In this document: positions 4,078 to 53,008 of the stretch, piece by piece
Position numbering within the stretch: position 1 is the stretch's first letter
Layout of the letters: each line of letters opens with the position of its first letter
NCBI GenBank assembly: GCA_016719785.1
Contig: JADJYJ010000010.1
Span: 1-64,000, forward strand
Reading direction: 5' to 3'
Origin: Candidatus Amarolinea dominans
Lineage (GTDB): Bacteria; Chloroflexota; Anaerolineae; SSC4; Amarolineaceae
DNA: 64,000 bases
The notes under the pieces: model-generated
Database searches by the model: none
What the model was told of the DNA's origin: nothing
Seen by the model: only the letters and a program-made list of their open reading frames with translations
Position numbers and translations under genes: made by a program

Positions 4078-4230
4078 GGCGGTATTGTAGCACAATTGCG
4101 TCAGAAGTTGGAAATCACCCTCACGATCGGGGTTGATTCGCATCGTTATGATCTGTATCGTGCGGGTATTCCATCCACAGAAAACAGGTCATCAAGCAGG
4201 CAACCGCACTGACTGCCGCCGCCGAGTGAA

Positions 4231-19618: not shown

Positions 19619-19693
19619 CGTCGGAATCTCCCTGAAACTGGGGCCGGTGGGGTGAGGTGCGCCGGCCTGGCGGAAGCTGTCAAAGAAAAACGT

Positions 19694-20500
19694 TCAGCGA
19701 CCCGCGTCGCGCAGCGGGGGTTGCGCCAGCGTGACGATGTAGCGGCGGTGAACCGGGTCGTAAGTCAACAGGATCACCTCAGAGCCGCGCTTGATGGCTG
19801 CTTCGCCCTGCACGACCGCGAAAATGGTGATCAACGTGTTGCCCGCGTCGCGCAGATGGACCATGCCATACTGGTCGTCCACGAACGGGCTGATGACCGT
19901 GCCGTGGGTACCCACCAGACTCTGCGCGCGACTGGCCGTGGTGCTGATGGGCGGCAGCGCGTGGCCCACCCAGCGCGCCATGCGTGCGGTCACCAGGCTG
20001 CCTATGACCAGCGCGGTCGGCAGCACCGCGAACAGCGCGGGGCCGGGGTACACCCCGGTGGCGCCAGCCAGCAGGCCGTTCAACAGCCAACCCAGCAGGG
20101 CCACCGATTCGAACAGGATCAGTAAGACCACCAGCAGCGGCGCCTTACCCGCGCCCAGGAAAGCCAGCAGCGAAAAACTGCCGGACGCGCCGGCGCCGCT
20201 CTCATGCTCGGCCGCGTGGCCGCCATCCGCCGCGTGATCGAGGTCTGCGCCATGATCGAGGTGAGCGTCGTGATCCAGCCCGGCATCATGATCGAGATGA
20301 ACGTCATGGTCCAGGCCGGCATCGTGATCGAGGTCCGCGCCCTGATCGACGTCCGCGTCGTGGTCTGCATCCCCGTGCGCGTCATCGCCCGCGCCCAGCC
20401 CGGTCAACTGCAGGCCGGCGAGCAGAATCCCCATGGCGAACAGCACCGTGAAAGGCAGGTTATACCAGGCAAAGGCAAAAGCGAGAAGATCACGCAGCAT
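19694..20500 (-). CDS. NfeD-like (YqiJ/DUF1449) membrane protein with OB-fold C-terminus and an internal His/Asp-rich repeat
   Basis: TM helices, a (D/H)HDAGLDH octad repeat and a C-terminal beta-barrel (VISPFVDDQYGMVHL...EVILLTYD). The position directly upstream of flotillin is canonical. Confidence 0.75.
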   Translation of the reverse strand: MLRDLLAFAFAWYNLPFTVLFAMGILLAGLQLTGLGAGDDAHGDADHDADVDQGADLDHDAGLDHDVHLDHDAGLDHDAHLDHGADLDHAADGGHAAEHESGAGASGSFSLLAFLGAGKAPLLVVLLILFESVALLGWLLNGLLAGATGVYPGPALFAVLPTALVIGSLVTARMARWVGHALPPISTTASRAQSLVGTHGTVISPFVDDQYGMVHLRDAGNTLITIFAVVQGEAAIKRGSEVILLTYDPVHRRYIVTLAQPPLRDAGR

Positions 20501-20733
20501 TGCACACCTCAGGCACAGCAGACCCCGTCCGCGCCGACTGACAGAATTTCGACGCCGATCACAGACCGCATTTTACCACCAGGTCGCAGCAGCCGTCAAA
20601 GCAAGTTGAGGACGAGTGCGGAGTTGAGCCAGCGGACGATGTCCCCGCGTGCCGTGGCATACGTGCGCAGACCGCCGGCGTTCCTGTTTGCACAGCACGT
20701 TGATGAGTTCGGTTGTAGACGCTCCGTTTTAGT

Positions 20734-25899: not shown

Positions 25900-27321
25900 T
25901 TACTTCGGCATGTTGCGCAGCGCATCATAGGTGGGCCTGCCATAGATCTTGAACGCGCTTTGCTCGCCGGATTCGAAGTTCAAGTTCCACAGGAACATCG
26001 GGCCAACCCAGCCCCAGGAGCGGGCAAGCTCGTAGGCGCGCACAGTCCAGGCGGCCTGTTCGTCGGCCGTGTTGTCGGCTGCATACTCATAGCCAGGATG
26101 CGGGTTGCCGGAAACGGCCCAGCCAAACTCGGTGGGCCAGATGCGCTTGGCGCCGTCGCCATTTGCCAACATGACATTGCGATAGCCCTCCATCGTGCCG
26201 CGGAAGCACCAGGAGTGGTGTCGGTTGTCGAAGGGGCCGCGATAGATGGCGCCGGCATCGGAGACCGAGCGCCAATCGCCGTCCGGCGGGCAGTTGAACC
26301 CGCTGGGGTGCGCGCCGATGGCGTCGGAATAGCTGCGCAGCCCGGCGCGGTACATGGCCGAGAGGTAGGCGACATCATCCATCGCCAGCGGCGCGGGCGC
26401 GCCGGTCGGCGTCAGCGCACCGCTGACCACGATCATGCCCGGGCATGCGCCCTTGATGGCGCGGTAGGCCGCGGCCAGGAGCTGCACGTAACGGCCTGGA
26501 TCAAGCGGTTCCCCGCCCCATTCGTACCACAGGTTTTGTTCGTTCCAGACCTCGATGGCCTGCACGCGGCCGCAGTAGCGGCTGGCAAAGCCGCGCACGA
26601 AGTTGGCATAGGTGCCCGGGTCGGCCGGCGGGCCTTCGACATCGAAGTTGCTGTTGCCAGCCCGCGCCCACTGCGGCGCCTTGACGATGCTGGCGAGGAT
26701 GCTCAGCCCGTTACCGTTGAACTGGCCGATCATGTCGTCCAGGCCGCCGAAGTCCACCTGGCCCGGCTGTCCCTCGAAATCCTTCCAGGGAAGCTGGAAT
26801 TTGATCCAGTTGAAGCCCATGTTCTTGACCGCGCCGATGATGAAGCCCTTGTCTGCGCTGGTCTCTACCTGGATGCCATAGCCAAAGAAGCCGGCCGCGC
26901 GCACGTTGGGCGCGGGCGCGGACACGGTGGTGCGTTTGGCCGTCGTCTGTGGCGGCGGCGCGGGCGCAGCTACCTCGGGTACGGCGCTCAGGCTGCTGTT
27001 GGCTTTCACCAGGGAGGCGCTGACCCAGCCCTGCTTGTCGCCGGTGGTGCAGCAGACCTTGAGCCAGGTGGCGCCCTTGTTCTTACCGATCACTTCCAGC
27101 GAACGGCCGAGCGTGACGCGGCCCAGGATCGTGTAGGCGGTGGAGGGACCAGAGCGTATATTGACCAGATCGCCGGTGACGGTGGCGGTGGGGCCAGAGG
27201 CCAGGGCGGGGCGGGCGACCGGCGCCGGTTGGGGAAGCGCGGCCAATGACACGGCCGGGAGCGCGGTGAGCAGAATCAGTGTGAGAAACAGGGCACGACG
27301 CAGCACGAACAGACGAGACAT
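25900..27321 (-). CDS. Secreted SH3b-domain + GH-A (GH5-like) glycoside hydrolase
   Basis: Start ATG 27319-27321 after AGGAGGA. Signal peptide, SH3b (GDLVNIRSGPSTAYTILGRV...WLKV), then VWNEQN and PTEFGW catalytic motifs. Confidence 0.75.
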   Translation of the reverse strand: MSRLFVLRRALFLTLILLTALPAVSLAALPQPAPVARPALASGPTATVTGDLVNIRSGPSTAYTILGRVTLGRSLEVIGKNKGATWLKVCCTTGDKQGWVSASLVKANSSLSAVPEVAAPAPPPQTTAKRTTVSAPAPNVRAAGFFGYGIQVETSADKGFIIGAVKNMGFNWIKFQLPWKDFEGQPGQVDFGGLDDMIGQFNGNGLSILASIVKAPQWARAGNSNFDVEGPPADPGTYANFVRGFASRYCGRVQAIEVWNEQNLWYEWGGEPLDPGRYVQLLAAAYRAIKGACPGMIVVSGALTPTGAPAPLAMDDVAYLSAMYRAGLRSYSDAIGAHPSGFNCPPDGDWRSVSDAGAIYRGPFDNRHHSWCFRGTMEGYRNVMLANGDGAKRIWPTEFGWAVSGNPHPGYEYAADNTADEQAAWTVRAYELARSWGWVGPMFLWNLNFESGEQSAFKIYGRPTYDALRNMPK

Positions 27322-27335
27322 AGGGTCCTCCTCAC

Positions 27336-27390
27336 GAGAGACTGAGAGACTGAGAGATTGAGAGATTGAGAGATTGAGAGATTGAGATCG
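27336..27390. repeat. 8-bp tandem repeat (gagagact/gagagatt, about 7 copies) in the 5' leader of the GH gene
   Basis: gagagactgagagactgagagattgagagattgagagattgagagattgagatcg, 15-70 nt upstream of the start codon. Confidence 0.85.
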
Positions 27391-27476
27391 CACCTGAAGG
27401 GCGTGACGGCCAGGCCATAGATTAGTACACGAGCAGCAGGAGAGGCGCATCGGATCAGCGCCTCTCCTGCTCGGAT

Positions 27477-30428
27477 TCACTTGGGCATGCGGGCCAGGGC
27501 ATCGTAGGCTGGCCGCCCGGCGATGCCGAACTGCGCCAGCTCCGTGCCCGGGTTGGTGATGCCAAAATTGATATTCCAGAGGAACATGGGGCCAACCCAA
27601 CCCCAGCCACGCGCCATTTGGTAGGCTTGCACCAGCCAGGCGGCCTGCTCTTCGGGGGTGTTGTCGTTGGCATAGCCGTAGTTGTTGTTGAAGGCCGGGC
27701 CGATCGCCCAGCCAAACTCGGTGGGCCAGATGCGCTTGCCGCCGTCGCCGTTGGCGATCATCACGTTGCGGTAGCCTTCCATGGTGCCGCGGAAGCACCA
27801 GGAATGATGATGGTTGTCGAACGGGCCGCGGAAGGAGGCGCTCGGGTCTTGCACCGTGCGCCAGTCGCCGTCAGCCGGGCAGTTGTAGCCGCTGGGGTGT
27901 GCACCGATGGCGTCGGCGTAATTCTTCATGCCGGCGCGGTACATCGCCTGCAGGTATTCGATGTCATCAATGGCCTTGCCGCCGCCGCCGCCCGTGGGCG
28001 TTGGCGCGCCGCTGACCACGATCATGCCCGGACACGCTCCCTTGATGGCGCGGTAGGCCAGTTTCAACATCTCCACATAGCGGCCGGCGTCGAGCGGCTC
28101 GTTGCCCCACTCGTAGTGCAGATTTTGCTCGTTCCACACCTCGATGGCCTGCACGCGGCCGCAGTAGCGCCCCGCGTACGCGCCCACGAAATCGGCGTAG
28201 TCCTGCAAGTTCTGCGGCGGGCCTTCATCCGAATAGCCGTAGGCCGGGTTGCGCGACCAGTTGGGCGCCTTGACGATGCTGGCCAGGATCTTCATGCCGC
28301 CGCCCGCCAGGGTGTTGACGATGTCGTCCATACCGCCCCAACCGTAGTCGCCCTTGCCGCCGCCTTCGAAGTCCTTCCAGGGCGCCTGGAACTTGACCCA
28401 GTCGAAGCCCATGTTGCGGGTGGCGTTGACCACATAACCCAGGTCGGCGCCGCCGTAGACCTGCGCCTGCACGCCGTAGCCAAACCCGGCGCCGCCACTA
28501 GGGCGCGGCGCGGGCGGGTTGTTGGCCGCCGGCGGCGCCGCGGGCGCAGGCGGCCGGGTGGGCGCGGGCGTTGCGGTCGGGGCCGGCGTGGGGGTCGCGG
28601 TCGGTTCCGGCGTGTCGGTTGCCACCGGGGTGTAGGTGGCGACCAGCAGCGCGACTTCACCGGCCGGGCTGACGGGGCGACCGTTTTCCACAATGACTGC
28701 ATTGATCTGATACTGCGCGCCTGGGCTATCCGGCGCCTTGAACGCGTAGACGCTGTTTTCGCTCAGCGGTTGGCTGGAAACATCGGTCACCTGTCCATCA
28801 GCGCCCTTGACGGTCCAACTGATGCCGAATTCGCTCTGCTGCGCCGATGGCGCGCCCTGCTGGAAGGTGGTCAGCATGCGCCACAGTTCCGGATCGGTTG
28901 CAGGCAGATAGTCCAGGGTAGCGCCTTGCAGGTGATACTGATTGACCAGCGCAAACTTGTGGCTCAGGCTGGCGGCATTTTCCAGCCAGACCGTCCGCTC
29001 ATAGCCCTGATCGTCGCGATAGCGATAGGTGTAGGCGCCGATGGCGTCATCGAAAGTCAACTGGCTGGTGGCGCGCTCGGCAATGACCTTGAGATCAATC
29101 TGTTCGCCCGGCGCGGCCACGCCTTTGGTGGCCTGCACCTGGCCGACCAGCGGCTGCAGGGCTTCATCGTAAGCCTTGAGCAGATAGTAGTTGCCCGAAC
29201 GCTCGATGCTGCGGCCGGGCAGCACGATCTGAATCTTGCTGCGGTTGACTTCGCCCACGGCCCATTTGAGCAGGGTGTGCATCTGGCCGTCTGGCGCATA
29301 GGCCTGCGGATTGCTGATGGCCGGGATGCGGAAGGTGTCCACCACCGCGCCCAGCTCACGCCAGAGGTACGGCCCGGTTTCCCAGCGATCCGCCGCCACC
29401 TGGCGCGGCTCCTCCACCCGCACAGAGACCTTCTTGTCCTGGGCGTGCAGCCTTGCGGCCAGTTTGGTCACAAAGGCGACATAGTCCCCCGCCAGTTCGG
29501 CGTTGATCCCGCGGTAGTCCAGGTCAATGCCCTTGTACAGGTTGCTCACCAGCAACTGCTCGATGGCGCTGATCTGCTTTTCCTGCTGCTCCGCGCTGAC
29601 CAGCAAGTTGGCGATCAAATCGGTGCGGATGGAGCCGTCATCGCCAAAGTTACGCAGGGTGGGGACCACCGCAAAGGAACTGGCTGCGTCGGCGGGCAGG
29701 CCCTGTATGCTGCCCTCGATGCCACCGTCACCGGCCAGGCGCAGGCCCACCGGGTTGACCTCCACCAGCGCGCCCTTGCCGGCGTCTGGCAGCGGATTGT
29801 CCGCGGTGACCAGTGCGGCGGCAACCGGCGGCTGCGCGGTGGTCTGCATCACCATGAAGGCCGCGGGGACGGCCGTCAGCTTCGACTCGATCGCGTCATC
29901 CTGCGGCACAATCTGGCTGGGGATGTAAGACCAGGCAGCAGCCTTCGGGTCGTAACCGTAGAGGTCGAGCGTTTCATAAGGTTCGGAGTCGTTGGGGATC
30001 GGTACGTGAATGACAGCCTGGGGCGGCTTGGCGCCGCGCACGCTGGTCTGATAAAGCGGACTGCGCGGGTTGACCGTGTTTGGCAGTTGCTCGGCCGCTT
30101 TGCGCAGTTCCGCACCACCCTCACCGGCCATGAAGGGCTGGCGCGAGATGCTGGTCAGGCGTATCTGCGTCGTGCCTTGCGTCATGGCCTCGGCAGGCAC
30201 CGTGACCGAGGTGCCATCGGAGTCAACCACCGAGCCACCCTGCTCGCCCACGCGGGTGAAGCCTCGGGTCTGGGTGCGCTCGATGAGAGAAACAGGGGGG
30301 AGAATCAGGCTGAAAATGACCAGCCCGGCAATAGCGAGATTCAACAACCAGCTTCCGTTGCGGCTGTTGAACCACCGGGTCAGGTTTGGATAGAGGTCAG
30401 ACGAGTTCGCGGTTTGCTGCATTGACAA
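27477..30428 (-). CDS. Membrane-anchored multidomain glycoside hydrolase: N-terminal TM, GH18-like domain lacking the catalytic Glu, PT linker, C-terminal GH-A (GH5-like) domain
   Basis: TM WLLNLAIAGLVIFSLILPP. The GH18-like motif reads KGIDLDYRG in place of DGxDxDWE. The C-terminal domain is about 60% identical to the neighbour gene (VWNEQNLHYEWG, PTEFGWA). Confidence 0.75.
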   Translation of the reverse strand: MSMQQTANSSDLYPNLTRWFNSRNGSWLLNLAIAGLVIFSLILPPVSLIERTQTRGFTRVGEQGGSVVDSDGTSVTVPAEAMTQGTTQIRLTSISRQPFMAGEGGAELRKAAEQLPNTVNPRSPLYQTSVRGAKPPQAVIHVPIPNDSEPYETLDLYGYDPKAAAWSYIPSQIVPQDDAIESKLTAVPAAFMVMQTTAQPPVAAALVTADNPLPDAGKGALVEVNPVGLRLAGDGGIEGSIQGLPADAASSFAVVPTLRNFGDDGSIRTDLIANLLVSAEQQEKQISAIEQLLVSNLYKGIDLDYRGINAELAGDYVAFVTKLAARLHAQDKKVSVRVEEPRQVAADRWETGPYLWRELGAVVDTFRIPAISNPQAYAPDGQMHTLLKWAVGEVNRSKIQIVLPGRSIERSGNYYLLKAYDEALQPLVGQVQATKGVAAPGEQIDLKVIAERATSQLTFDDAIGAYTYRYRDDQGYERTVWLENAASLSHKFALVNQYHLQGATLDYLPATDPELWRMLTTFQQGAPSAQQSEFGISWTVKGADGQVTDVSSQPLSENSVYAFKAPDSPGAQYQINAVIVENGRPVSPAGEVALLVATYTPVATDTPEPTATPTPAPTATPAPTRPPAPAAPPAANNPPAPRPSGGAGFGYGVQAQVYGGADLGYVVNATRNMGFDWVKFQAPWKDFEGGGKGDYGWGGMDDIVNTLAGGGMKILASIVKAPNWSRNPAYGYSDEGPPQNLQDYADFVGAYAGRYCGRVQAIEVWNEQNLHYEWGNEPLDAGRYVEMLKLAYRAIKGACPGMIVVSGAPTPTGGGGGKAIDDIEYLQAMYRAGMKNYADAIGAHPSGYNCPADGDWRTVQDPSASFRGPFDNHHHSWCFRGTMEGYRNVMIANGDGGKRIWPTEFGWAIGPAFNNNYGYANDNTPEEQAAWLVQAYQMARGWGWVGPMFLWNINFGITNPGTELAQFGIAGRPAYDALARMPK

Positions 30429-33300: not shown

Positions 33301-33711
33301 TTACACGACGCAGTAGCCGCACACTGTCTCCCCAGTGAAAGCGAGGCGGCGGCTGGCAAGGGGCGGTTGGAGTAGACGCGACGACGCGATGGCTCCTGCC
33401 GCTCCCTTGTGTTCCTCGCCCCGGTTGCCGACGTAGCTACGCATCCACTCCTGCGCCGACCCCGTCAGGTTGAAGCCCACCGTGCCGCCTGCCACGTCGT
33501 CCAGCACCTGCCCGGTGAAGCGGCGCTGCGTCGGCGTCGTACCGAAGGTGTAGCGGCTCTCGCCCCACGGCTTGTAGCGAATCTCCGACAGCCGGCCGCC
33601 GGTCTCGCTGGCTGTCAGCGCCGTGCTGCCGAGATGATCGGTCGCCAGCCAGCGCACCACCCCGTTGACCCGCAGCGCAATGCGCTGACCCCCGGCCTGG
33701 TAATACATCTT
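33301..33711 (-). pseudogene. Orphan RHS core-end fragment with a short divergent C-terminal tail
   Basis: MYYQAGGQRIALRVNGVVRWLATDHLGSTALTASETGGRLSEIRYKPWGESRYTFGTTPTQRRFTGQ is the conserved RHS C-terminal core. It has no upstream repeats. Confidence 0.55.
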
Positions 33712-33748: not shown

Positions 33749-34137
33749 CTAATCCTCGAACTGCTCGCGCTGCAGACAATCCTTGTAGACGGCATGCCAG
33801 ACGTATGGCTCAAAGCTGCCGAGATCATCGTCCACGACGAATACGCCATTGACAGGCCTACTCTTGACAATCACGATGTCGGCTTGGTCATACTTATGAC
33901 GGCCGAAGAAGAAAAGATCCGTGATTGTTTCAAGCTTGCCGCCTACGAGATTGGGGCATGGCTGATGGTACCAGGCCTTTCGCTCAGACTCCGGATCGCA
34001 TCGTCGCGCAGCGTCCCCACGGGCACCTGTTTTCTCGCCTCCTCCAACGGCGATGTATAGCATCCAGCTACCAGTGTGACCAACAAGATCACGACACTCA
34101 CTGCTCCCAGTCTGCCGGCAACACTGATATGTTGCAT
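33749..34137 (-). pseudogene. Small lipoprotein directly downstream of RHS-1 (candidate immunity protein), frameshifted
   Basis: ORF 33943-34194 gives signal peptide plus lipobox VILLVTLVAGC. It continues in ORF 33749-34063 in another frame. Confidence 0.4.
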
Positions 34138-34160
34138 AACAAGCCTCCTGGCAGCGTCCA

Positions 34161-36687
34161 TCAGAACCAACGATCCAGCATGAAAAAGTTCCATGCGTGT
34201 GTGATGTCCGTCAACCCCAGGACACGGAATCGAACACCGAGCGCAGCCCCGCGATTTCCGATGCTGACATCTGACCAGCTATTGCGCCAATCGCCATGAA
34301 ATTGCGTGATTTCGCGCCCCGTGTTGAGCAAACTGCCGCCCGGGCCGTACTCCGCCCCCATGGTCAGCGCCCAAGCCCAATGATGCACATTCGCATCGTC
34401 ATCTGAGGTGCCCATGAACGAGGCAGGCAACCCCTGCCGATCAAAATAAACCCAGGTCCGTATGGGATTCCCTGCATTGCTGACCGCCGGCCAAGCGTTT
34501 GGCGCTTCCAAGCGATTGGCTAGACCTCCGAACAGGCTACCAATGTCTCTGGTGAACATACCCTCTTCGCCAGCTTTGTACCAACCGGTCAAGCGTTCCA
34601 GCGCGCTTGGCATGTCATTCCATGACCAGTTAGCAGGTCGGTTGTCTCGGAATACGCTCTCCAGGTTTCCCTGGACGTAGTTACCGTCAGCGTCGTAGAA
34701 GACTGACCAATTCCACTCGCCAGGAAAGGCTATCGAGAACAGACGAATCAAAATGTCTTCGGCCGTCGGCGCACGATGATGCATCTGCTCAAATTCGTCT
34801 TGCCACGCCTGATCCAACGGGTCGTGGCCTGATGGATCGATAAAGCGTAGAGGATTATTCCGGCAGTAAGAGTAGCGATTGAGATTTTGCGGATCGCCAG
34901 GATTGGGTATAATGCTGTCGGGTTGGATCCACCGGTTAAGATAAGGGTCGTAGTATCTGGCGTTGTAGAAATACAACCCAATGCTCGCATCCTCGCGTTG
35001 ACCCGTGAACCGGTAGGTCGTCGGCGTCGCGCCGACGGGCGTCCCTCGATTCTCACCCCACGGCTTGTACCACAACTCCCCCGTGCGCTCACCGCTGGCG
35101 CCATTGGCCGTCACCGTCGTGCTACCCAGGTGATCGCGCAACAGCCAGTACAACACCCCCGCCACGCGCACGGCCACCCGCTGACCGTTGAAATAGTAGT
35201 ATTTCGTGTGCGTCGTCGCGCCGCCAACCACCTTCTTCTCGTACAGGTTGCCGATCGTGGTGACCGTCTCCCCGTTCATCACGCTCTTGACCCGGTTCCC
35301 ATCCGCGTCATACACGAAGCTCGCCGTTGCTGCCCCGCTGATGCTGACCAGGCGATTCTCGTCATCATACGTCAGGGTGTAGGTGTTCCCCCCGATCGTG
35401 CGCCGCCGCATGTTGCCGTTCTGATCGTAACAGTAACTGCTGCCGTTGCTTGTGCTCACCACCGCATGCTTCTTCACCAACGCACCTTCCGGGCAACTGC
35501 CCGCCTGCGCCACCCCGTAGCTGTACGTCCCCTGCCCCGTCTTGCTGATCAGGTTGCCCGCATTGTTGTAGCTGTAGCTCTCATCGTACACCCAGCTCCC
35601 GGTCCCATCGTCGTAGCCCGCGCAAATCGCATCACCCGTGAAGCCGCGCAACAACCGATCCAACCCGTCGTAGCTGAAGCACTGCCGCTGACCGCTATTG
35701 CGCGCATCCACGATCCAGCGCACATTGCCGGCCGTATCGTAGCCATACGTCAAGTCCTGCAAACTGCTGGCATCCGCCGACGTTCCTGCCTTCACCTTCT
35801 GCAGGCGCCCCAGTCCGCCGCTCGCTGTCCAGGGATGGTAGGTGAACGCCATCTGCACCACCGGATTGTTGTTGGTGCTCTGCTTGCCCAGCTTCAACTG
35901 CGTCAGCCTTCCGGCCTCATCATACACCGCATTCCCGCTGCGCACATAATCCACACTGCTGTACATCCGCCCCGGCAGCCCCTGCGCTGTGTACGCCACG
36001 TTGACCGTCTCCGCACTCTGGGTCGGGTAAACCACCCGCAGCACCCGGTCCGCCGAATCATAGGTGTAACCGAGGGTGTACGCCTCCCCATCAATCGTGT
36101 GCGTTTCCGCCGTCACCCGCCCGCGCTTGTCGTATGTCCAACTCGCGCTGTTGTTGACTTCGCCGCCCACATACGCCCTCATCCCGGTGCGCCGACCCTT
36201 GCCGAACTGCGTGGCCCCATCGAACGCATCATAGCTGTAATCGGCCAACACCATCCCGCTGCTGCTGCCGCTCTGCCATTTCTGCGTCAGCCGGTTCCAG
36301 TCCGTCATAGCCAAACCCTATCGTGACATTCCGCGCATCGGTCTGCGCCACCAGGTTCCCGGCCGTGTCGTACGTGTAACTCCACGCACCCATGTCCGGG
36401 TCGTTCATACTCGTCTTGCGCCCCAGCAGGTCGTACGTGATCGTCGTCACCGCCCCATCCGGCCCGGTCATCTGCAGCAGCCGGTCGGCGATGTCGTAAG
36501 CATAGGTCGTCACCCCGTTCGCATTCGCATTCCAGGCCGGCGTCGGACACGTGGCCGTGCCGCTGCCCAGTCGGTCGCCAGCCAGCGGGCGCGGGCGGGG
36601 CGGGGGGCTCGGGGCGCTTTGCGCTGATACCGTCGTCGCCAGAGTGGTAACAAGCATCAACTCTGCCGTGCAAAAAGGGGACATCAA
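34161..36687 (-). pseudogene. RHS/YD-repeat protein (about 840 aa) with signal peptide and about 240-aa C-terminal domain; one frameshift at about 36300
   Basis: ORF 36229-36687 carries the signal peptide and the first YD repeats, and ORF 34161-36314 carries the rest. The core ends ...YRFTGQREDASIGLYFYNARYYDPYLNRWIQPD...RFIDPSGHDP, followed by the C-terminal domain. Confidence 0.8.
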
Positions 36688-36765
36688 ACACCTCCTCTAC
36701 CCTAGATAACGCTACTTTATCACAGCGTTACTTTACCCAACTTTGGTAGTGGTGTCCAGTCCTCA

Positions 36766-37177
36766 TTTCACATCGTACGGTGTCAAATCGAGCAGATTCA
36801 GAGGAATCCACCCTTCAAGAGAACCTGAGGATTTGACAAAGGCCCAGAATTCTTGATCGGTATTTGACCAGGCAAAGTCCCAAATGGTAACTTCTTTGTA
36901 GCATGGCAGAACCCCCAACAGATTACCTCTGTCACCCATGTATGCACTGTTTGGATCTGAAGGCTTGACACCGGGCAGTTCCCAGATACTAATCCCGCCT
37001 GGATCTAATTTCGGATCCCCTGTACATCCAATACTCGCCTTTTTTGGCAGTACTTGTAGTTCGTGTGGTGTTGTTGGTGTTCTCTCGGGGAGGGGTCGGT
37101 TGAGGCGATATCAAGGCGCATCCGTTCAGCGTCAACATAAATAAACACATCGTTATGGTCAATATGGTATTCAGCAT
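36766..37177 (-). pseudogene. Small lipoprotein starting 4 nt after the giant RHS stop (candidate immunity protein), frameshifted
   Basis: MLNTILTITMCLFMLTLNGC lipobox in ORF 36989-37270. After a frame change near 37000 it continues ...GCTGDPKLDPGGISIWELPGVK...WIPLNLLDLTPYDVK* to 36766. Low-GC region. Confidence 0.45.
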
Positions 37178-37181
37178 GGCG

Positions 37182-40100
37182 CTACCTCGCCCACGGCTGA
37201 AAGTAGTACCATGGCACACGATGACCAGGCGAGTTGCTCGCCCAAAGCCCGGATCGCGCATCCACAGCATAAGTCACGGCCAAGCCAACCTCTGCCATGC
37301 TGATGATTCCATCATACAACATGGACCCGTGGCTTACCGCCACATACCCCAAGTTCAGATCGGGATTACTCAACTCGCTGAGAGGGCCATCTCGAAGCCA
37401 ATTGCTGGCGTAACCAGCAGCTGGCCCAAAGAAATACCCCAGGTAAAAAAGTCCTGCGTAATGATGGCTTGGATTGGGGTCATCAACCAATGATGCTCTC
37501 CAGTTGGCTGTGCCTTCGAAGAGAGGTTCATATTGGGCCCATGCAGCGCCAGGGTTGGTTGCCATCTGCCAGGCTGCAGGGATGGCATGGCCAAGCGGTA
37601 CACCTCCCCAAATAAAACCAATGGCTTGGGCGTATAATCCTTCCTCGCCGGGTGCATAATACGAGGCCAGTTGTTGAAGATGAGTAACAAAACGATCCAG
37701 TCCTGCAGATGGAGCGCCTTGCCATGATGTGCTACCTTCCCAGAGTCCTTCCCTATTGGCGTGATACCTTGTCCAATCCTCATCTGTCCACGAACCGTTA
37801 GCCCCACTGCCGGCAAACAAGATCGAAAAGAACCGATCTCGGCGATCTTGGTCAGTTGGCGCACGATCATGCGCGGCGTAGAAGGCTTGCTCCCACGCAG
37901 CATCTATGGGGTCAAATCCACTCGGATCCACAAAACGTAAAGGTCGGTTCCCGACATAGCTGTACCGATTCAAACTTTGCGGATCTTTGCGGCTGGGGAA
38001 TGATCGTATCCGCGGCGAGGAATCGCCCGATGACCGGGTCATACCATCGCGCCTGGTAGAACAGCAACCCTGATCCACTATCCCGCCGCTGCCCCGTGAA
38101 GTTGAACGTCGTCGGCGTCGTGCCCGCCGTGTAACGCGGCGCGCCGTAGGGGTAGTAGCGAATCTCGGTGTTGGTGTTCAACCGATTCCCCGCGCTGTCC
38201 AGCGTCAGCGCGGTGGAGCCGAGATGATCCGTCAGCAGATAGTAGAGTACACCGCCGCTGTTCTCCGCCACGCGTGCGGCGCCAGCGTAATAGTACTTCT
38301 TGACCGTCCCGTTGTCTACTTCGTAAGTGTTCCCTACGAAGACCCGGGTCGCGCCGCTGATGGTCTCCTTGACCCGGTTGCCGTCGCCGTCGTACACGTA
38401 ACTCGCCGTCACGCCCCCGGACATCGCAGTCAGCCGATTCTCCGCGTCGTAGGTCAACGTGATGTCCTGGCTGCCGCTGATGCGCCGGGTGGCGTTGCCA
38501 TTCTGGTCGTACCAGTATTTCTGATAGCCTGCCGTCGTGCCCCCGACATGGGTCACAGCATGCTTGTGTGCGCCATTCTGATAGTAGAGGTTCGTGCCTG
38601 TGCTCTCGAAATTGGTGATGTTGCCCGCATTGCTGTAGGCGTAATTGCGCTGGCTGTAAGCTCCGTAGTTTCCATTGTTGGCAACGCAGGTCCCCCCGCT
38701 CAGCGTGCATGCCGTTTGCAGACGATCCAGTCTGTCATACGTGAAGCGCAGCGCCTGGCTCCCGCCGTACGCCGCCGCATCCGTAATCGTCAGCACGTTG
38801 CCCGCATCATCGTACGTGTAGCTGATGTTCTGCCGGTTATCGTAGTTCGGACTCGTGCCTGCCTTCAGGCTCAGCAGGCGGAAGTTCTCGGCCGCACTGT
38901 AGGCGTACAGTTGTTTCACCACCCCGGTCGTGCTGCCCAGCCAGCGTTCCATCACCTGCCCGCGTTCGTTGTACTGCGTCTTGCCGACATAGTAGGTGCT
39001 GCCGTTGCTGCGCACTGTGTTCAGCAACCCCTGCGTCGTGTACGCATAGTGTACCTGCTCGCCAATCTGACTCGCACTGCCGCCGGGGTATTTCATCCAC
39101 AGCGGCCGATCCGCCGAGTCGTATCCCCACTGTGTCACGAAGGTTCCGCCGCCCGTTCCGTTGATGGCCTTGCTCTCCTGCGTTACCCGTCCGCGGCCGT
39201 CGTAGGTCCAACTCGCGCTGCCGGAGCTGTCGCTCATCCCGGTGCGTCTCCCCTTGCCGGTTGTGCCGCTGTCATACGTGTAACCCACCGCCGTCGCACT
39301 GCATCCACTCGACCCGCTGTAGGTCTTGCCCTTCACCCGGTTGAGGCCATCGTAGCTGAAGGTGATGACGCAACCCCGCGCATCGGTCTGCGTCTGCAGA
39401 TTGCCCGCCGTATCGTAGGTGTAGCTCCACGCACCCATGTCCGGGTCGCTCATGCTGGTCTTGCGGCCGGCCAGGTCGTACCCGATCGTCGTCACCGCCC
39501 CGTCCGGCCCCGTCATCTGCTTCAGCCGGTCGGCCACATCGTAGCTGTAGCTGGCCTGCCCGTAGACCGTCGCTCCCCAGTTCGGCGCAGCCCCCGGCGC
39601 CAGCGTCAGATCATACTGCTTGACACTCGCCAACCGCCCAAAGGCATCGCTCTCCGAGATCGTCTGGTGGTTCAGCTCGTCCAGCATCGCCGTCTGTCGA
39701 TTCTGGTAGTAGGTGCGCACGGTGCTGCCGTCCGCCTGCGTGACCTGCGTCACCCGCCCCAACCGATCGGACGTTGACTGCGTCGCGGCCAGCCCACTCC
39801 AGTTCACCGCCTGGTACGTCACTCCGCTCACCGTACTCGTGTACGGCGCCGAGGCCGCCGCCAGGTTGCCCAGCCCATCGTAGCGCTGGCTCACCAGGCT
39901 CCACTGGCTGCTGCTGTACTCCTTCTGCACCTGCCGCACGCGCCCCAACCCATCGTAGAACGTGCGCTCCTCCAGGTAGGTCGCACTCGCGCTGGCGTCG
40001 CCATTCCCATCATCGCGCAGCAAATGCCGCTGCACATACAACCCCTGGTCCGTCGTGTAGACAATCTTCTCCGTCGCCGGGTTGCTGAACCCCGCCCCCG

Positions 40101-43100
40101 GCTTACGCACCTCCGTCAGCCGGCCAAACGTATCGTACGTATAGAGCGTGACCGCCTCGTTGGCGTCGGTCTCGCTCTGTATTTGTCCCACCAACCCGCT
40201 GCCCCCGCCGTCGCATTCATGCCGTAGCGCGATGGTCGTCGTCAGCGTCGCGCCGCCCAACTGACAGGCCTGCACCGTTACGCTCATCGCATAGGCATGA
40301 AACGTGCTGTCGAAGGCCGTCGTGACCACGCTGCCATTGGCCGCCGTCTCGCTCCAACGGTTGCCCCATTGGTCATAGCCGTAAGCCGTCGACCGCATCC
40401 AGTTCGCGTCACACCCCGTGCCGCCCTGTCCCGCCTGCCACACCTCTCTCACCTGCCCAGCCGTCGGCGCCTGGTTGTACGCCGCATAGCCGCTGTAGTT
40501 GTCGTAGATGGTGCGCGTCTGCCCCTGGCATGTCCCGCTTTCGCTCCCCGCGAACAGCTTCTCCTCCGCCACCCGATTGACGATGTAGGTCGTGCCGTCA
40601 TTGCGTGGGGAATAGACCCGCTTGATCGTTCGGTATGGTATCGTTGGCGCGGCCTCGCTGTATAGCCGGGTCAACAGCAGATTGCCATACGCCGCATCGT
40701 AGGTGTTGACGCTTTTGGTGTAACGCAGCGGCGGGTCCGTGCCGTTGGGGTCCACAACGTATTCGGTCTTGTCTTGCAGATAGACGAAGTGCATCCCGCC
40801 CGGCGTCCCCACGCTGGTCTCGTTCCAGGTCTGCAGCGAACGCGCCAGCAAGTTGTTGGTGACGCCCAAACCCGCACGCGTCTCTGTCTTGGACAGCTTG
40901 CCTTTCCAGCGGTGCTGATTGGTCGTGGTGTGGAACCACTGCTTCAGCCGCGTGTCCGGCTGACCGCTGCCGATCAAGGCGCCGCTCCCTACCAGCGTCA
41001 TTTCCGCTTCGGCAAAGCCCCCCGCCTCGTTGTCCCAGGTCGTCGTGTACCAGTAGCTCGTCACGATGTCCGGATCGCTCCCGCCCCCACGCCGCCGCTC
41101 CTGCTGCACCACCATTCCGCCGCTCGAACCGCCGTACGTAACCTCCACCCGTCCCTGGTAGCCGTTGTTCACCGTCACCATGTGCCCATCCGTCGTGCCG
41201 CTCCCGTAGGTGTAGCTGGTTGGCGGCAGCGCATTGCTGCCGGTCCCATAGTGCGTGATCGTACTCAAGTACAGCCGGCTCTGCGACGGCGCCGCCGGGT
41301 TGATGAACGCCGTCATGCCCAACACCAGTTTGTGCAGCAGCGTATTGTTGGCCATCACCTCCACCCGCTGCAGGTACTTTCGTGTCCAGAAAACCTGGTA
41401 GCCGGTCTCGTCGAAGTGCTGAGCCCGGTCCTCCCGGTTCAGATAGAATAGCTTCAGCTTGAAGGCGCCGTTTGGCCCATAGCTGATCTCCTTCACCCGC
41501 ACCGCACGCACCTGGATGCGCGCATCGGCCGTGTAGTCGCGGTTCCAACAGTCTGCCGGCACATTCACCGCCAACAACGAACCCTCATAGTCATAGCTGA
41601 ACGTCAGACGATTAGGCGTCGTTGGCGTGGTGTCGCGCACCTCGGTCAACACCCACTTGGTGAAGCGATGCACCACCCGCAGTTCCGAAGGCGTCCAGTC
41701 TCCATTGCTGCAATCGCGCACATACAGCGCCGGCTCGAAGTGATAGGTAATGCCGCCCTCGGTCGTCACCTCCCACACCAGGTTGTCCCGGTTGTACAGC
41801 GCCGGCGTCTGGGGCAGATCAATCGTCTTGAAGGGCGTCGGCGTACTGGGGTCAAAACTTCCATCGACTGGATAGTCAGGGTTGGAAGCGGTGGGCCGGC
41901 GAATCTTCAGGAAGGGGTCCTGCACGCTGTAGAAAATCTCGCCGTGTTTCTCCAATTCATGGGTCACGCCGTTCAGGGTCAGGTGTACTTTCCCATGCCG
42001 TCTGGAGTCAAATCGTGCAGGATGTAGCTCAACCCACCGATGTCCCAGCCCCACCCGGCCAGTTGATGATGACCGGCGCCGGCCAGGCTGCGGCTGCTAT
42101 AGTCCAGGCTTAGCCCAGGCGCCAGTCCGCCCGGCCCCGGCGGCGCTGCGATCGGGTAGCTCACGGTCCAGGCCCCGTTGTACAACTGCGACTGCACCCC
42201 TTCGATCCCCGGCGCAGGCTCTGGCACAATGGCGTTGCCTTGCGCAAACAGCGTCAAATGGGTCAGGGTGGTGATCAGCCGCCTTTGCTCCTGATCCATG
42301 CTCGTTGGCAAGACCACCCAACGCCCGTCGGCCGCATCCTGGAAGAACAGCGAAGCGCCCGGTGGCCAGGGCGTTTGCTCATCGCCAGCCGCCGGATCGC
42401 GATAGCGCAGCGTCAACCCCACCGCAAACTGTGTCACCGGCAGTCCCGACATCTCCGTGGCGCTCAACTCGAACAGGAAATCAAGGTTCGCCGGCTGATC
42501 GGGATCGCTCTCGTGCGGGTGTAGCGCACCAGGGTCGGTGCGCTGACCGTACCAGCCGGAATCGTGAGCACCACCCGCCCATCGCTGCTCTGCAACCGGC
42601 TCTCCTGATCAGGCATCACCCACACCTCATCCGGCCCCGGCCCCGGCGTCCAGGTGGCGTCGGCGTCGGCGTACACCCCTCATCATCCTGGCAGGGGTGA
42701 CGGTGCAGCCGTCGGCGTTGGCGTCGCCGTCGGCGTCCAGGTGGCGGTCGGCGTTGGCGTCACTCCTCATCCTCGGTGGCGTGGCCGTCGGCGTCGGTGT
42801 ACACTCCTCATCCTGGCAGGGCGGCGGCTCGGCCGTCGGCGTGGCGGTCGGCGGTTCGGCCGTGGGCGTCGGCGCGCAGTCCTCGCCCAGGCAGGGCGCC
42901 GCGGTGATCGTGATCGCAGCGCTGGCCGTCACCCCTGCGCCCACCTCCTCGCTCACGATGGCCGCGGTGTTGGTGATGACCTGCCCGCTGACCGCACCCA
43001 GCGCCTGCGCCTGGAACGTGCCGGTCAGCGTCGCGCCCGCGGCCAGTTGGCCGATGACCCACTCCAGCCGGCGCTCGGCCTCCAGGTAGCTGAAATCCCC

Positions 43101-43322
43101 CTCCCCGGCCGGCCAATAGGCCAGCTCCAGCGGCAGGGTATCGCTCACCACCAGCCCGCTCAGGGCGCGGTCGGCCAGGGTGTTGGTGATGACCACGGTG
43201 TAGGTGACCACCCCGGCCGGCTCGACCTGCCGCGGTGCCGCGGCCAGCGTCAACTGCACCGGCGCAGGCGCGGGCGTCGCACCAGGATCGGAAATGAGAT
43301 CGAAATTGGGATCAGGGGACAT
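37182..43322 (-). pseudogene. Giant (about 2,040 aa) RHS/YD-repeat polymorphic-toxin-like protein: DUF11/CARDB-like domain, PT linker, SpvB-like N-terminal region, YD repeats, RHS core, about 270-aa C-terminal domain; about 4 frameshifts
   Basis: Pieces 42627-43322 (DUF11, TPTPTATP), 42464-42676, 41979-42467 (GWGWDIGGLSYI) and 37912-42054 (dozens of YD repeats; YYYAGAARV...LTDHLGSTAL...FTGQRRDSGSGLLFYQARWYDPVIGRF). These are followed by 37182-38078 (PxxxxDPSGFDP then the C-terminal domain). The shift at about 42005 occurs in a gggaaag run. Confidence 0.85.
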
Positions 43323-43345
43323 GGGTTTAGTAGCGGTATTTATCT

Positions 43346-43357
43346 GGGGGGGGGGGG
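43346..43357. repeat. Homopolymeric G12 tract (C12 on the RHS coding strand) about 25 bp upstream of the giant RHS start
   Basis: tatctggggggggggggtagcagc. Confidence 0.85.
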
Positions 43358-43726
43358 GTAGCAGCAGCCGCCGTGGAAAAGAGCAGGCTGAATACTACCA
43401 ACAGATGAACCAACGACGACAGGCGCGGCGCGAGCCGGCCGCGAGCAGAATGTCGAGAAGAGAGGAGAGAGAAAGTAGAACACCAGCGTAACATGACAAC
43501 GGACTCCTTTCGTGCAGCAATCGAAACGGCTGGGGTCAGGGACATTTTCCTGACTGCTGTAAGGAGGTCGCGGGCGGGAGAGAGAACTCTCGCCGGGGAC
43601 TTCCGACGGCGGGAGACGACTCGGAAGGCGGGGGGCATGCTTGTGGCTGGTCACAGCATACCACGCGCGCGGCGATCTGTCAAGAGGCAAATTCGGGTGA
43701 CGACAGGGAGTCACGAAGGAACCAAG

Positions 43727-50638: not shown

Positions 50639-53008
50639 CTACCGGTTGATGCTGTTGTAGCTGGCCAGCCACTGTCCACTCTTGAGCGTCTCCGCCACGG
50701 CTACCAGTGGTTGGTTAGACTGAATCCGTACCGAACCTGTCCAGTTGCCGCCCAAAGAAATCGTAGCACAATGGTTGCGGGTATTGCGGCTGAGCGATCT
50801 GCCCGCGACGATCGTCAAGTTCGACTCCTGGAACGTCAGCGTGCCGTTCTGGTCGTAGTAATAGATGTCCACGTCAGTGGCATTGCTGGTAGTTGGATTC
50901 TGGATGCGCAAGATGGAGTACTGATCCCACTGGTTTTCACTGGACGGGCAAGAAGTGTAGGCGGTGTTCTTCTGGTAGACACCCGGCAGGTAGGTGTTCG
51001 TGCTCGCCAGTCCGCTGTGAACGCCGGTATAGGCGCCAGCCACGTTGTTGTCCGGCCGGAGGGTGATCTGCGCTACTGCCAGCGGCTGATTGGACTCAAC
51101 AATGACAGCGCCTGCCCATGCGCCTCCCAGAACACTGTAGACGCTGGCCTCGACATTGCCACCCGTCTTGGTGTTGAAGCCTTTGGCCGCATTCGGTGTG
51201 ATGGTTTGACCGGAGATGGTCAGGTCTTCGTTGCCGGTAGCGGCATTGCGATAGCGCAGGGTCACGTTGGCATTGCTGCTGCCCAGGTTTTGCACGATGG
51301 TGATCGAGAAGCCCTGCCAGCTTCCTGCGTTGGGATTGCAGTCGGTGCAACGCCGCTCTATGGAAGGTGCAAAGACCGGCCGTGCGCCACCGCTGACGCC
51401 GTTGTAAGCCGCCACATACCAGCGCCAGTAGTTGGTCAGCACAGAAGTGATGAGCTGGCCGTTGGTCGAGGTAACCTTGACTGCTCCGGTCCAGTTGCAG
51501 CCGGCCAACGTTCCGCATTGAGTATTGTAGTAGTCCGTCTGCCTCAGATCCGGCACTGCACCGCCTGGATCACGCAAGTCGTAATTGCGAAAGCCGTTCG
51601 CTACCAGGGTGTCGGAGCGCGTGAAGTCGGTCACGCCGCCGCGGTTGATGTACGTGAGCTCCAGGCTGGCGGCCGCGGTGGTCGTGTTTTGCACCATGAA
51701 GCGGGAATACTGGACGAAAGGCACGCCGTGGGTGACCGGATCCGGGTAGTAGACGGCGTAAGGCAGGTACATCGCAGCGCTACCCGCGTCGAAAGCGCTG
51801 TAGGCGACTGCCGCGTTGCCATCCCCATAATCGCCGCCGCTATAGCGATTCTCCACGATCACGGCCTGGTCCTGGCTGGCCACCGCCAGGGTTGAGCCGC
51901 GACAAAAGGCGCAATAGTTGGAGAAACGCACCTCCCTGGTGCTGTTGAGCGCAATGAAGTCGGTATTCTGCCGGTGTACCCAGTCGTCAGCGAGCAAGCT
52001 GGTGTTGACTTGGGCTACCTTGGCCTGGCTGTTGTTGCGCACCAGGATGGTCGAGTTCCAGCCGTAGTAGTTGGATAGGATGTCCGGCAGATAGGCGGGA
52101 TACAGACCAATGAAGGTGGTCCGGCCCGCGACGAAGGTGTGGTTGCCCAGGTCTTCATAGAGGGTGTCGTTAGGATAGCGAGCATAGAGGTGGTAGGTCC
52201 CCGGCTGCACGTCGGTGGTACCAAAATTCTCCACCACCAAGTCGTCCGCATTGGCCCAGGTGTAGGCATAGGTCTGTGACCAACCATAGCTCCCCCAAGT
52301 GGCATTGGCAGGTTTTTGTATGCCATGAATTCGCAATCCGCCGACTGGGTTTCCATTGGCATCGGTCACTTTGCCTACTGCGTTCGCTGTTTGGGTCCCG
52401 CCGTTATTGAATGATTCAAGCCAGAGTTCAGGGTTCCGCGACCGGGCCTCTGAGTCGAGTGTGTTAGGCTCCAGCTGTCTGTCTGACTCAGGATGAACAA
52501 CAATCTGCTGGTGTAGGTGATTTCCCTGCGAGTAACTACCGGTGTCGTCCACTTCACCGATCTTGGTTTGGCCAGCGTATACGACGTTGCCCACCTGTAC
52601 TGGTACACTCCATTGTTTGAGATGAAGATACACGGAGTAGACGTAAGCCATCTGTTGCGATGTACGATCATAGTGTCGCTGATTGTGACGCACGAGCGCA
52701 AAATTGCCCCAAGCGGTGCTTCTGTCTCCATCCGGTCTATCTTCACGCAGTTGGACAACCGTACCGTCTGCGACAGCGTATACGCTGGTGCCGTTTGGGT
52801 AGGGAAAGTCGATGCCTTTATGCGTGCTTCCACCGGACTCCTCAGCATACAAATAATACTGGTTGATCTTTCCACCATTGTCAGTGATCGGGCGTCGAAT
52901 TTGGTATGCTGCGTAAATGTCACCAATAAGCGCTGCCATCAGTAACACCAGGAATGCAGCGATAAGTACACTTATTCTGAACTGCTTTTCTACGAGTGTG
53001 TTTGTCAT
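50639..53008 (-). CDS. Membrane-anchored M23/LytM-family metallopeptidase with large C-terminal domain of unknown function (copy 1)
   Basis: N-terminal TM, HKGIDFPYP...GNHLHQQI (HxxxD...HxH M23 motifs), then a 550-aa Asn/Thr/Tyr-rich beta domain. Confidence 0.8.
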   Translation of the reverse strand: MTNTLVEKQFRISVLIAAFLVLLMAALIGDIYAAYQIRRPITDNGGKINQYYLYAEESGGSTHKGIDFPYPNGTSVYAVADGTVVQLREDRPDGDRSTAWGNFALVRHNQRHYDRTSQQMAYVYSVYLHLKQWSVPVQVGNVVYAGQTKIGEVDDTGSYSQGNHLHQQIVVHPESDRQLEPNTLDSEARSRNPELWLESFNNGGTQTANAVGKVTDANGNPVGGLRIHGIQKPANATWGSYGWSQTYAYTWANADDLVVENFGTTDVQPGTYHLYARYPNDTLYEDLGNHTFVAGRTTFIGLYPAYLPDILSNYYGWNSTILVRNNSQAKVAQVNTSLLADDWVHRQNTDFIALNSTREVRFSNYCAFCRGSTLAVASQDQAVIVENRYSGGDYGDGNAAVAYSAFDAGSAAMYLPYAVYYPDPVTHGVPFVQYSRFMVQNTTTAAASLELTYINRGGVTDFTRSDTLVANGFRNYDLRDPGGAVPDLRQTDYYNTQCGTLAGCNWTGAVKVTSTNGQLITSVLTNYWRWYVAAYNGVSGGARPVFAPSIERRCTDCNPNAGSWQGFSITIVQNLGSSNANVTLRYRNAATGNEDLTISGQTITPNAAKGFNTKTGGNVEASVYSVLGGAWAGAVIVESNQPLAVAQITLRPDNNVAGAYTGVHSGLASTNTYLPGVYQKNTAYTSCPSSENQWDQYSILRIQNPTTSNATDVDIYYYDQNGTLTFQESNLTIVAGRSLSRNTRNHCATISLGGNWTGSVRIQSNQPLVAVAETLKSGQWLASYNSINR

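Follow-up and report, generated by a model that had tools for sequence, protein, structure and literature searches.

Two ancient paralogous C-terminal domains in a putative Sec-exported RHS toxin locus of Candidatus Amarolinea dominans

The window analysed here is a stretch of 64,000 nucleotides of Candidatus Amarolinea dominans (contig JADJYJ010000010.1, positions 1 to 64,000). On its minus strand, a full-length RHS gene (RHS1) ending in the C-terminal domain CT1 is followed by the lipoprotein gene Imm1, a 5'-truncated orphan RHS gene (RHS2) ending in CT2, a second lipoprotein gene, Imm2, and a core remnant. The features are as follows.

42015..43494 (-): RHS1 N-terminal region with signal peptide, DUF11/CLIPPER domain, Pro/Thr-rich linker and SpvB-like segment, from three-frame translation
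37914..42054 (-): RHS1 shell and core, with RHS_repeat (E 1.4e-32), YD_repeat and TIGR03696 Rhs_assc_core matches
37985..37997 (-): frameshift at the RHS1 core end (ADTIIPQP / KDPQSLNRY), dividing a 1380-aa ORF from the CT1-bearing ORF; the sister strain L023 is continuous here
37914-37928 (-): DPSGF motif, RHS1 core end
37185..37913 (-): CT1, 243-aa C-terminal domain, from BLASTP against CT2 and the family profile; stop codon 37182-37184
37452-37466 (-): His-His motif of CT1
36763..37177 (-): Imm1, lipoprotein, about 137 aa (MLNTILTITMCLFMLTLNGC...), C-terminal part SH3-like; candidate immunity for CT1
34824..36525 (-): orphan RHS2, 5'-truncated RHS core fragment with RHS_repeat and TIGR03696 matches
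36331..36498 (-): high-identity patch at the 5' end of orphan RHS2, 85% DNA identity to RHS1 39376-39543, gapless (blastn)
34824-34838 (-): DPSGH motif, RHS2 core end
34164..34823 (-): CT2, 220-aa C-terminal domain, from BLASTP and the family profile; stop codon 34161-34163
34371-34385 (-): His-His motif of CT2
33749..34137 (-): Imm2, 129-aa lipoprotein with lipobox LVAGC and two more invariant Cys, candidate CT2 immunity
33485..33708 (-): third RHS core remnant, truncated (MYYQAGGQRIALRVNG...VLDDVAGG), from translation; breaks off before the core end

The domain order in the full-length RHS gene is signal peptide, DUF11, SpvB-like segment and RHS shell. RHS1 starts with a predicted Sec-type signal peptide (MLRWCSTF...LVHLLVVFSLLFSTAAAA), and its N-terminal region matches DUF11 with an E-value of 1.2e-10 and, weakly, SpvB (E 0.0025, 17.5 bits versus a Pfam cut-off of 22 bits); a 'faint' SpvB match is also on record for a Caldilinea homologue. 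The same region is a single 476-aa ORF in the sister strain L023 and is broken by frameshifts in the present assembly. RHS/YD repeats (PF05593, TIGR01643) are present in the RHS proteins of the locus. For RHS2 the profile matches reach E 7.8e-12 with PF05593 (RHS_repeat) and E 6.6e-24 with TIGR03696; in RHS1 the TIGR03696 match is divided over two ORFs at the frameshift (model positions 1-52 and 49-75). The RHS2 core fragment exhibits 42% amino acid identity to residues 905-1351 of RHS1, and the 168-nt high-identity patch is a possible recombination anchor. With 94% DNA identity, the third core remnant resembles the core preceding the CT2 cassette in another metagenome (L021). The interval 34161-38078 considered in the first-pass annotation is bounded by the RHS2 stop and the start of the CT1-bearing ORF and excludes Imm2 and nearly all of the RHS1 core.

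That annotation spoke of two RHS proteins. Neither protein is an intact ORF here, RHS1 being frameshifted and RHS2 both truncated and frameshifted. RHS1 contains at least three frame changes, one of them 24 codons upstream of DPSGF; its N-terminal frameshift at GGGAAAG was placed by reading two overlapping frames. One frameshift is found in RHS2 near 36298 (GG run) and one in Imm1 in a C-run near 37083-37090, and Imm2 shows a one-base deletion in an A-run at 33976-33979. All five localised frameshifts occur at short single-base runs (A3, C4, GG, GGG/AAA) and are probably assembly errors in the metagenome-assembled genome. If they were real, the locus would be a decaying pseudogene array, and none of its proteins, neither RHS protein nor lipoprotein, would be made in this strain. 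Five frameshifts in about 9 kb with every gene of the locus hit, as well as the truncated 104-aa Imm2 ORF in the deposited MAG annotation, would be in accordance with such decay, which we nevertheless regard as unlikely. The L021 sequence, 98% identical, departs from the A-run of the window by exactly one A, and its Imm2 is intact. L023 keeps its frame at the sites affected in the window and loses it at others where the window is unshifted, and the same kind of fragmentation is seen in an unrelated giant beta-helix gene of the window. Together with the location in single-base runs, this fits indel errors of long-read assembly.

Pairwise BLASTP aligns 176 residues of CT1 and CT2 at 32% identity (E 1e-19). 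The three peptide pairs quoted earlier for a collinear similarity of roughly 30-40% were all found in the minus-strand translations and aligned by BLASTP. The pairwise alignment places the similarity wholly behind the DPSG motif and the end of the RHS core model; a similarity confined to a core extension, followed by unrelated CT domains, is thus not what we find. In the 717-aa RHS2 ORF, TIGR03696 covers residues 416-497 and CT2 begins at residue 498, so the similarity is not a core extension. Since the family profile covers positions 1-221 of CT1 (E 1e-69) and 1-222 of CT2, the homology comprises the whole domain. No DNA-level similarity between the two CT regions is left in blastn, and they therefore do not stem from a recent duplication or gene conversion. 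As judged from their sequences, CT1 and CT2 are paralogues of ancient origin (31-32% identity) and belong to two clades of one undescribed domain superfamily.

This superfamily comprises at least 321 cluster representatives (50% identity) at E<=1e-3 and 177 at E<=1e-10. Of the 88 matches preceded by more than 60 residues, 86 show RHS core-end motifs; the domain lies at the protein end, followed by a median of 13 residues. By this context its place is almost exclusively behind the DPxG motif that ends Chloroflexota RHS cores. All 20 homologous genome loci belong to Chloroflexota MAGs with the exception of one low-coverage contig labelled Leptolyngbya; since a 15-sequence CT2-clade alignment was used as query, the genome scan is biased towards this clade. 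Near-invariant across 205 sequences are W7, Y82, H147, H148, D185 and G189, and R170 is 95% conserved. The His-His doublet is conserved with S or V before it (N-P-S-H-H and N-V-H-H-W motifs). Searches of both CTs and 59 family members against Pfam, NCBIfam and PDB sequences gave no match, and none of the 59 matched a Pfam toxin model at E<=1. The profile search of the CTs likewise returned no curated family; nearly all of their relatives are RHS C-termini, and those with a named source all come from Chloroflexota. The AlphaFold (AF2) model of CT2 is all-alpha with a pLDDT of 94.7, and no structural neighbours of the CT model were found in the PDB. The earlier impression of one unfamiliar domain family used twice is in line with these results, the domain spanning about 220-245 aa and being without a counterpart in Pfam, NCBIfam or the PDB in either sequence or predicted fold. 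In the literature on Rhs in connection with Chloroflexi or Amarolinea, we found no description of the CT1/CT2 family.

Behind both CTs a lipoprotein gene follows closely, Imm1 beginning 5 nt past the CT1 stop and Imm2 23 nt past the CT2 stop. As already recognised in the first-pass annotation, a different small lipoprotein accompanies each CT: BLASTP shows no relationship between Imm1 and Imm2 (E 0.51). The Imm1 orthologue in L023 is intact with 135 aa. Imm1 homologues lie 3' of CT1-clade genes at the loci L022, L029 and L031 and are fused in P0025; a weak SH3_3 match was obtained on the L022 homologue, not on Imm1 of the window itself. In the Imm2 family the lipobox Cys and two further Cys are invariant. 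Imm2 may have a BLIP/OsmE/BamE-like fold and was compared with BLIP-like proteins and OsmE/BamE (SmpA_OmlA) lipoproteins, the BLIP/BamE-OsmE module being alpha-alpha-beta-beta-beta(-beta) and exported or lipid-anchored. Of the 20 homologous loci, 17 have a small ORF with lipobox, signal peptide or N-terminal anchor 3' of the CT. Toxin distances and downstream immunity distances correlate within the CT2 clade over a continuous range (Mantel r 0.89, p 2e-4, 15 loci), although simple linkage of two adjacent genes would give the same correlation. Imm1 and Imm2 are candidate cognate immunity proteins for CT1 and CT2, and CT1 and CT2 very likely represent toxin/immunity cassettes of one new family.

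The lipoprotein gene after each CT suggests that the toxin acts outside the cytoplasm, and we consider an extracytoplasmic target likely. Between an enzyme and a pore-former, we slightly favour the enzyme. As a membrane-permeabilising toxin, pore-forming or depolarising, the CT would be counteracted by lipoproteins that block its insertion; this appears rather improbable. The GRAVY values of the two CTs are -0.44 and -0.31, and the highest 19-residue Kyte-Doolittle hydropathy amounts to 0.98 in CT2 and 1.29 in CT1. As no 19-residue window exceeds 1.3, the CTs are without a hydrophobic hairpin. The invariant positions carry polar or charged side chains (Y, H, H, R, D), as is typical of active sites, and no similarity to colicin or Bcl-2-type pore domains rises above noise. 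Further, Imm1 and Imm2 are globular lipoproteins and not polytopic membrane proteins. A colicin-type pore-forming domain was rejected in view of the low hydropathy, the lack of a structural match and the globular lipoprotein immunities.

It had also been suggested that the family might diversify through point mutations instead of CT exchange, with CT1 and CT2, on this reading, duplicated within the lineage. Several observations are compatible with it. At only 42% identity, the RHS2 core fragment has diverged from RHS1 to a degree similar to that of the CTs. Two CT2-type cassettes with 94.5% identity, whose immunities differ more, occur at the L003 locus, and within the CT2 clade toxin and immunity genes diverge together. 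The suggestion is, however, largely refuted by the clade structure: the CT identity matrix separates CT1 and CT2 cleanly into two clades, and their nearest relatives in other genomes show 82-86% identity, compared to 31% between the two. Besides, their immunities are non-homologous, and the CT/Imm cassettes have a GC content of 0.55/0.47 and 0.56/0.545 versus 0.61-0.62 for the cores. In the sister strain L023, whose flanks are 99% identical, an unrelated CT and immunity occupy the orphan position, with the breakpoint about 40 codons ahead of DPSGH; this replacement by itself indicates that cassette swapping operates. The same CT2 cassette is found on a different core in L021. About six downstream gene pairs of a Caldilinea orphan array have the layout of CT/immunity modules, but only one CT there matches the family profile. 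Taken together, these comparisons indicate that cassette swapping is active in this lineage, and diversification by point mutation in its place is improbable. The co-occurrence of CT1 and CT2 is best read as two separate cassette acquisitions.

As a whole, we interpret the region as what is probably a Sec-exported RHS polymorphic-toxin locus of Anaerolineae (Chloroflexota) that acquired CT1 and CT2, both of the new family, as cassettes. In the mechanism we propose, the RHS shell would enclose the CT of about 25 kDa, and autoproteolysis at DPSG would free it. Its target would be located at the outer face of the neighbour's cytoplasmic membrane or in the neighbour's wall. There the CT would most likely act as an enzyme employing Tyr82, His147-His148, Arg170 and Asp185 (with Glu86), a role suggested by conservation alone. 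The producer would be protected by the cognate membrane-anchored lipoprotein binding the toxin outside the cytoplasm. CT1 and CT2 would have been brought together by cassette acquisition, not by in-place duplication, and inside a clade toxin and immunity would drift together afterwards. A cytoplasm-acting HNH/EndoVII 'SHH/AHH/WHH' nuclease, with lipoproteins unrelated to immunity, would match the conserved His-His doublet with preceding S or V, but is extremely improbable: no Pfam toxin model matches at E<=1 among 59 members, the model is all-alpha with His-His at a helix N-terminus and not in a beta-beta-alpha metal finger (on these grounds of Pfam and fold Tox-SHH, AHH, WHH and GHH domains were all rejected), and the genes downstream are exported throughout and diverge in step with the CT.

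The general scheme of polymorphic toxins includes a TcdB/TcaC-type, Sec-exported RHS class (Zhang et al. 2012, PMC3482391). An SpvB-like segment near the N-terminus would be compatible with this class, with the SpvB match below the Pfam cut-off; a TcA-like partner gene was not seen near the locus. A predicted signal peptide, RHS/YD shell and polymorphic CT in bacteria without T6SS are shared with TcdB/TcaC-type proteins and with WapA of Bacillus subtilis. WapA CTs are tRNases with cytoplasmic immunity, whereas the immunities here are exported lipoproteins. Enterobacterial Rhs toxins with orphan rhs-CT/rhsI modules were reportedly found in E. coli, Salmonella and Dickeya by Jackson in 2009 and Koskiniemi in 2013 and 2014. 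Common to these and the present locus are the YD/RHS shell, the DPxG core end, a variable CT with a small immunity gene behind it, 5'-truncated orphan modules further downstream, CT/immunity tips of lower GC and strain-to-strain CT replacement with a breakpoint in the conserved core end. In contrast to the enterobacterial systems, delivery is apparently Sec-dependent (signal peptide, DUF11, SpvB-like N-terminus) and involves neither PAAR nor VgrG, main and orphan core share only 42% identity except for the 168-nt patch at 85%, the CT fold is undescribed, and the immunities are exported lipoproteins instead of cytoplasmic proteins.

Periplasm-acting T6SS pairs, such as the Tae4-family Ssp1/Ssp2 with Rap1a/Rap2a in Serratia, Tse1-Tsi1 and Tle-Tli, have lipoprotein or periplasmic immunity. 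Similar to these, paralogous effectors of one family occur in one genome with their own immunity each, and the immunity is exported or lipid-anchored, which would imply a target outside the cytoplasm as in the T6SS pairs. The CT differs in being related neither by sequence nor by fold to amidase, muramidase or lipase effectors, and in its delivery route.

More tentatively, a new CT enzyme fold might attack the Chloroflexota envelope extracytoplasmically, with at least three unrelated exported inhibitor families recruited against different clades. These might be a BLIP/BamE-like, an SH3-like and a Cys-rich membrane-anchored protein. If true, this would offer a natural system for how one toxin scaffold escapes and re-acquires immunity; homologous toxins are here paired with non-homologous antidotes in one system. 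The confident model, the few near-invariant polar residues and the exported immunities make a new envelope-targeting activity a directly testable hypothesis. The cassette-swapping view of RHS evolution is not overturned, the locus being otherwise ordinary in this respect. RHS toxins have been catalogued mostly from Proteobacteria and Firmicutes, and the CT1/CT2 family adds a sizeable toxin domain family tied to Chloroflexota, with no curated family or structural relative and at least 321 cluster representatives at 50% identity. Among its carriers are relatives of Candidatus Amarolinea, filamentous bacteria of activated sludge.

Homology between the C-terminal domains of the main RHS gene (RHS1) and of the 5'-truncated orphan RHS fragment (RHS2) was confirmed by BLASTP. 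In the 176 residues aligned, CT1 and CT2 are 32% identical (E 1e-19); the alignment takes in all three motif pairs quoted in the first-pass annotation, whose observation on the two domains was correct. No similarity is left between the CT1 and CT2 regions at the DNA level. Since the RHS-associated core model (NCBIfam) stops at residue 497 of the RHS2 ORF, with CT2 starting at 498, and the family profile spans practically the full length of both domains, the similarity is not an extension of the core. All relevant genes of the locus lie on the minus strand and are listed below.

Features of the RHS locus in the window
From 43494, minus: N-terminus of RHS1, signal-peptide-like; then DUF11, a linker rich in Pro and Thr, and a segment with weak SpvB similarity
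37912-42054, minus: RHS-repeat ORF of RHS1, 1380 aa
37182-38078, minus: terminal ORF of RHS1, 298 aa, beyond a frameshift; end of the RHS core, DPSGF and CT1
37185-37913, minus: CT1, 243 aa, C-terminal domain after DPSGF
36763-37177, minus: lipoprotein gene Imm1, beginning 5 nt past the CT1 stop
About 36525-34824, minus: orphan fragment RHS2, 5'-truncated, ending in DPSGH, then CT2
34164-34823, minus: CT2, 220 aa, C-terminal domain after DPSGH
33749-34137, minus: second lipoprotein gene, Imm2, downstream of CT2
33485-33708, minus: further truncated RHS core remnant, beyond Imm2

RHS1 is interrupted by at least three frame changes, and RHS2, Imm1 and Imm2 by one apiece. Short single-base runs occur at all five localised frameshift sites, which lie near window positions 33977, 36298, 37085, 37990 and 42000. 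The run in Imm2 differs by exactly one A from that of L021, a metagenome contig with a nearly identical CT2 cassette, where the ORF is intact (129 aa). The sister-strain MAG L023 is in frame at the shifted sites of the window and has shifts of its own at sites that are in frame in the window. Translation of the frameshifted Imm2 gene gives a 104-aa product (P0217, 33749-34063, minus strand) identical to the annotated IPM84_12980, a hypothetical protein of an 'Anaerolineae bacterium' MAG, so the frameshift is already present in the deposited record. Elsewhere in the window, four overlapping ORFs in different frames (5814-11835, minus strand) all show Beta_helix/NosD matches and probably represent one giant beta-helix surface protein broken by frameshifts, which supports indel errors in the assembly. 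We consider assembly indels the likely origin of the frameshifts in the RHS locus.

A word-indexed search with both CTs as queries returned 70 clusters. When 1.84 billion representatives were searched exhaustively with a profile, 321 matched at E<=1e-3, of which 177 reached E<=1e-10. The domain invariably stands at the C-terminal end, where a median of 13 residues follow it; RHS core-end motifs precede it in 86 of the 88 matches with enough upstream sequence. Named sources all belong to the Chloroflexota (Caldilinea, Anaerolineae, Thermoflexales, Promineifilaceae, Ktedonobacterales and Candidatus Amarolinea), with the sole exception of a contig binned as Leptolyngbya at 1.1x coverage. None of 59 family members has a sequence match in Pfam, NCBIfam or the PDB, in accordance with the earlier view of one unfamiliar domain family used twice. 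Judged by sequence, CT1 and CT2 represent a new, uncharacterised family of predicted RHS toxin domains, present twice in one locus and accompanied by exported candidate immunity proteins. The AlphaFold2 model from the 59-sequence alignment is confident (pLDDT 94.7, pTM 0.92) and consists of eleven helices. Across 205 sequences W7, Y82, H147, H148 and D185 are essentially invariant, followed by G189 (98%), R170 (95%) and E86 (87%). A third, more distant clade exhibits a linker of 30-50 residues past DPxGH and the motif NQSHHYAG.

Of 20 related genome loci, 17 encode, directly 3' of the CT, a small protein that bears a lipobox, a signal peptide or an anchor at the N-terminus. As the first-pass annotation had stated, each CT in the window is followed by a different lipoprotein, Imm1 and Imm2 being mutually unrelated (E 0.51). 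Lipoproteins with an SH3-like tail follow the CT1-clade genes in the window and in four related loci (L022, L023, L029, L031), and are fused in the protein P0025; at one further locus, L028, a different Cys-rich anchored protein follows the CT1-clade gene. Partners in the CT2 clade share the pattern 'AWYHQPC...DLFFFG...VVIV.S', and in their alignment the lipobox Cys and two further Cys are invariant. The latter two likely form a disulfide, a feature that would be consistent with a location outside the cytoplasm. Because the candidate immunity proteins are exported, we argue that the toxins would act outside the cytoplasm. An enzyme is favoured over a pore-former, since the domain is predicted to be soluble (GRAVY -0.31 to -0.44), hydropathy of CT1 and CT2 reveals no hydrophobic hairpin and the invariant residues are polar.

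As to how the family diversifies, the first-pass annotation had raised the possibility of point mutation instead of CT swapping; its interpretation as a whole is partly supported, this part of it is not. In favour of the idea, toxin and immunity distances within the CT2 clade are strongly correlated (Mantel r 0.89, p 2e-4, 15 loci), although linkage alone could account for this. Likewise, an Anaerolineales orphan array (L003) carries two CT2-clade cassettes (910-2093 and 5734-7047) that are 94.5% identical, their lipoprotein genes appearing by eye more diverged than the toxins. The stretch between them contains two cassettes with a different type of CT (SGRFGDDMH...).

Against it stands the evidence for cassette displacement. 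The CT sequences split into two clean clades: identity to CT1 and to CT2 is 48-82% and 23-31%, respectively, in the CT1 clade, and 22-33% and 38-86% in the CT2 clade. Each CT in the window is therefore far closer to genes of other genomes than to its neighbour. The GC content of the CT/Imm cassettes (0.55/0.47 and 0.56/0.545) is below that of the cores (0.61-0.62) and of the whole window (0.623). In L023 (GCA_016704685.1) the flanks are 99% identical to the window and RHS1, CT1 and Imm1 are kept, whereas the orphan matches only down to window position 34945, from where an unrelated CT and a candidate transmembrane immunity protein follow. In L021 the nearly identical CT2 cassette is joined to a core known in the window only as a remnant at 33485-33694. 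In a Caldilinea array just one CT matches the family profile, and about six downstream gene pairs show a CT/immunity-like layout. Within RHS2, a 168-nt patch has 85% identity to RHS1, the remaining core 42% at the protein level. Taken together, this is the classical picture of cassette displacement, and the RHS system housing the family is otherwise an ordinary, cassette-swapping one.

Comparison of window 33749-34979 with L021 623-1883 revealed a single synonymous change in the 660 nt of CT2, whereas 17 codons differ in the 390 nt of Imm2 (10 synonymous, 7 non-synonymous). This sharp change in divergence at the gene boundary suggests a recombination breakpoint between toxin and immunity gene. 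The L021 cassette is immediately followed by a pair of tyrosine recombinase (Phage_integrase) genes (2035-4502), and similar pairs flank a CT1-clade gene in the related loci L031 and L032. The L023 orphan RHS (18221-20615) bears a Gly-rich unrelated CT of ~270 aa past DPAGL, with a transmembrane helix at the N-terminus of its candidate immunity protein.

Further genes on the minus strand of the window were noted. Without relation to the RHS locus are an AAA-ATPase_like protein with a PD-(D/E)XK domain (PDDEXK_9, 2509-4143) and an adjoining CAP/SCP-domain protein (4231-5757). On the low-coordinate (downstream) side of the RHS locus, about 3 kb from its end, the region 25900-30428 contains large ORFs that match SH3_3 and, weakly, GH18. 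They lie beside a GH5-like gene and possibly encode exported envelope- or polysaccharide-active proteins. Two paralogous Peptidase_M23 proteins are encoded at 50639-53008 and 55231-56697; sister-strain DNA homologous to the former gene is also ~90% identical to window 55261-55958, within the latter.
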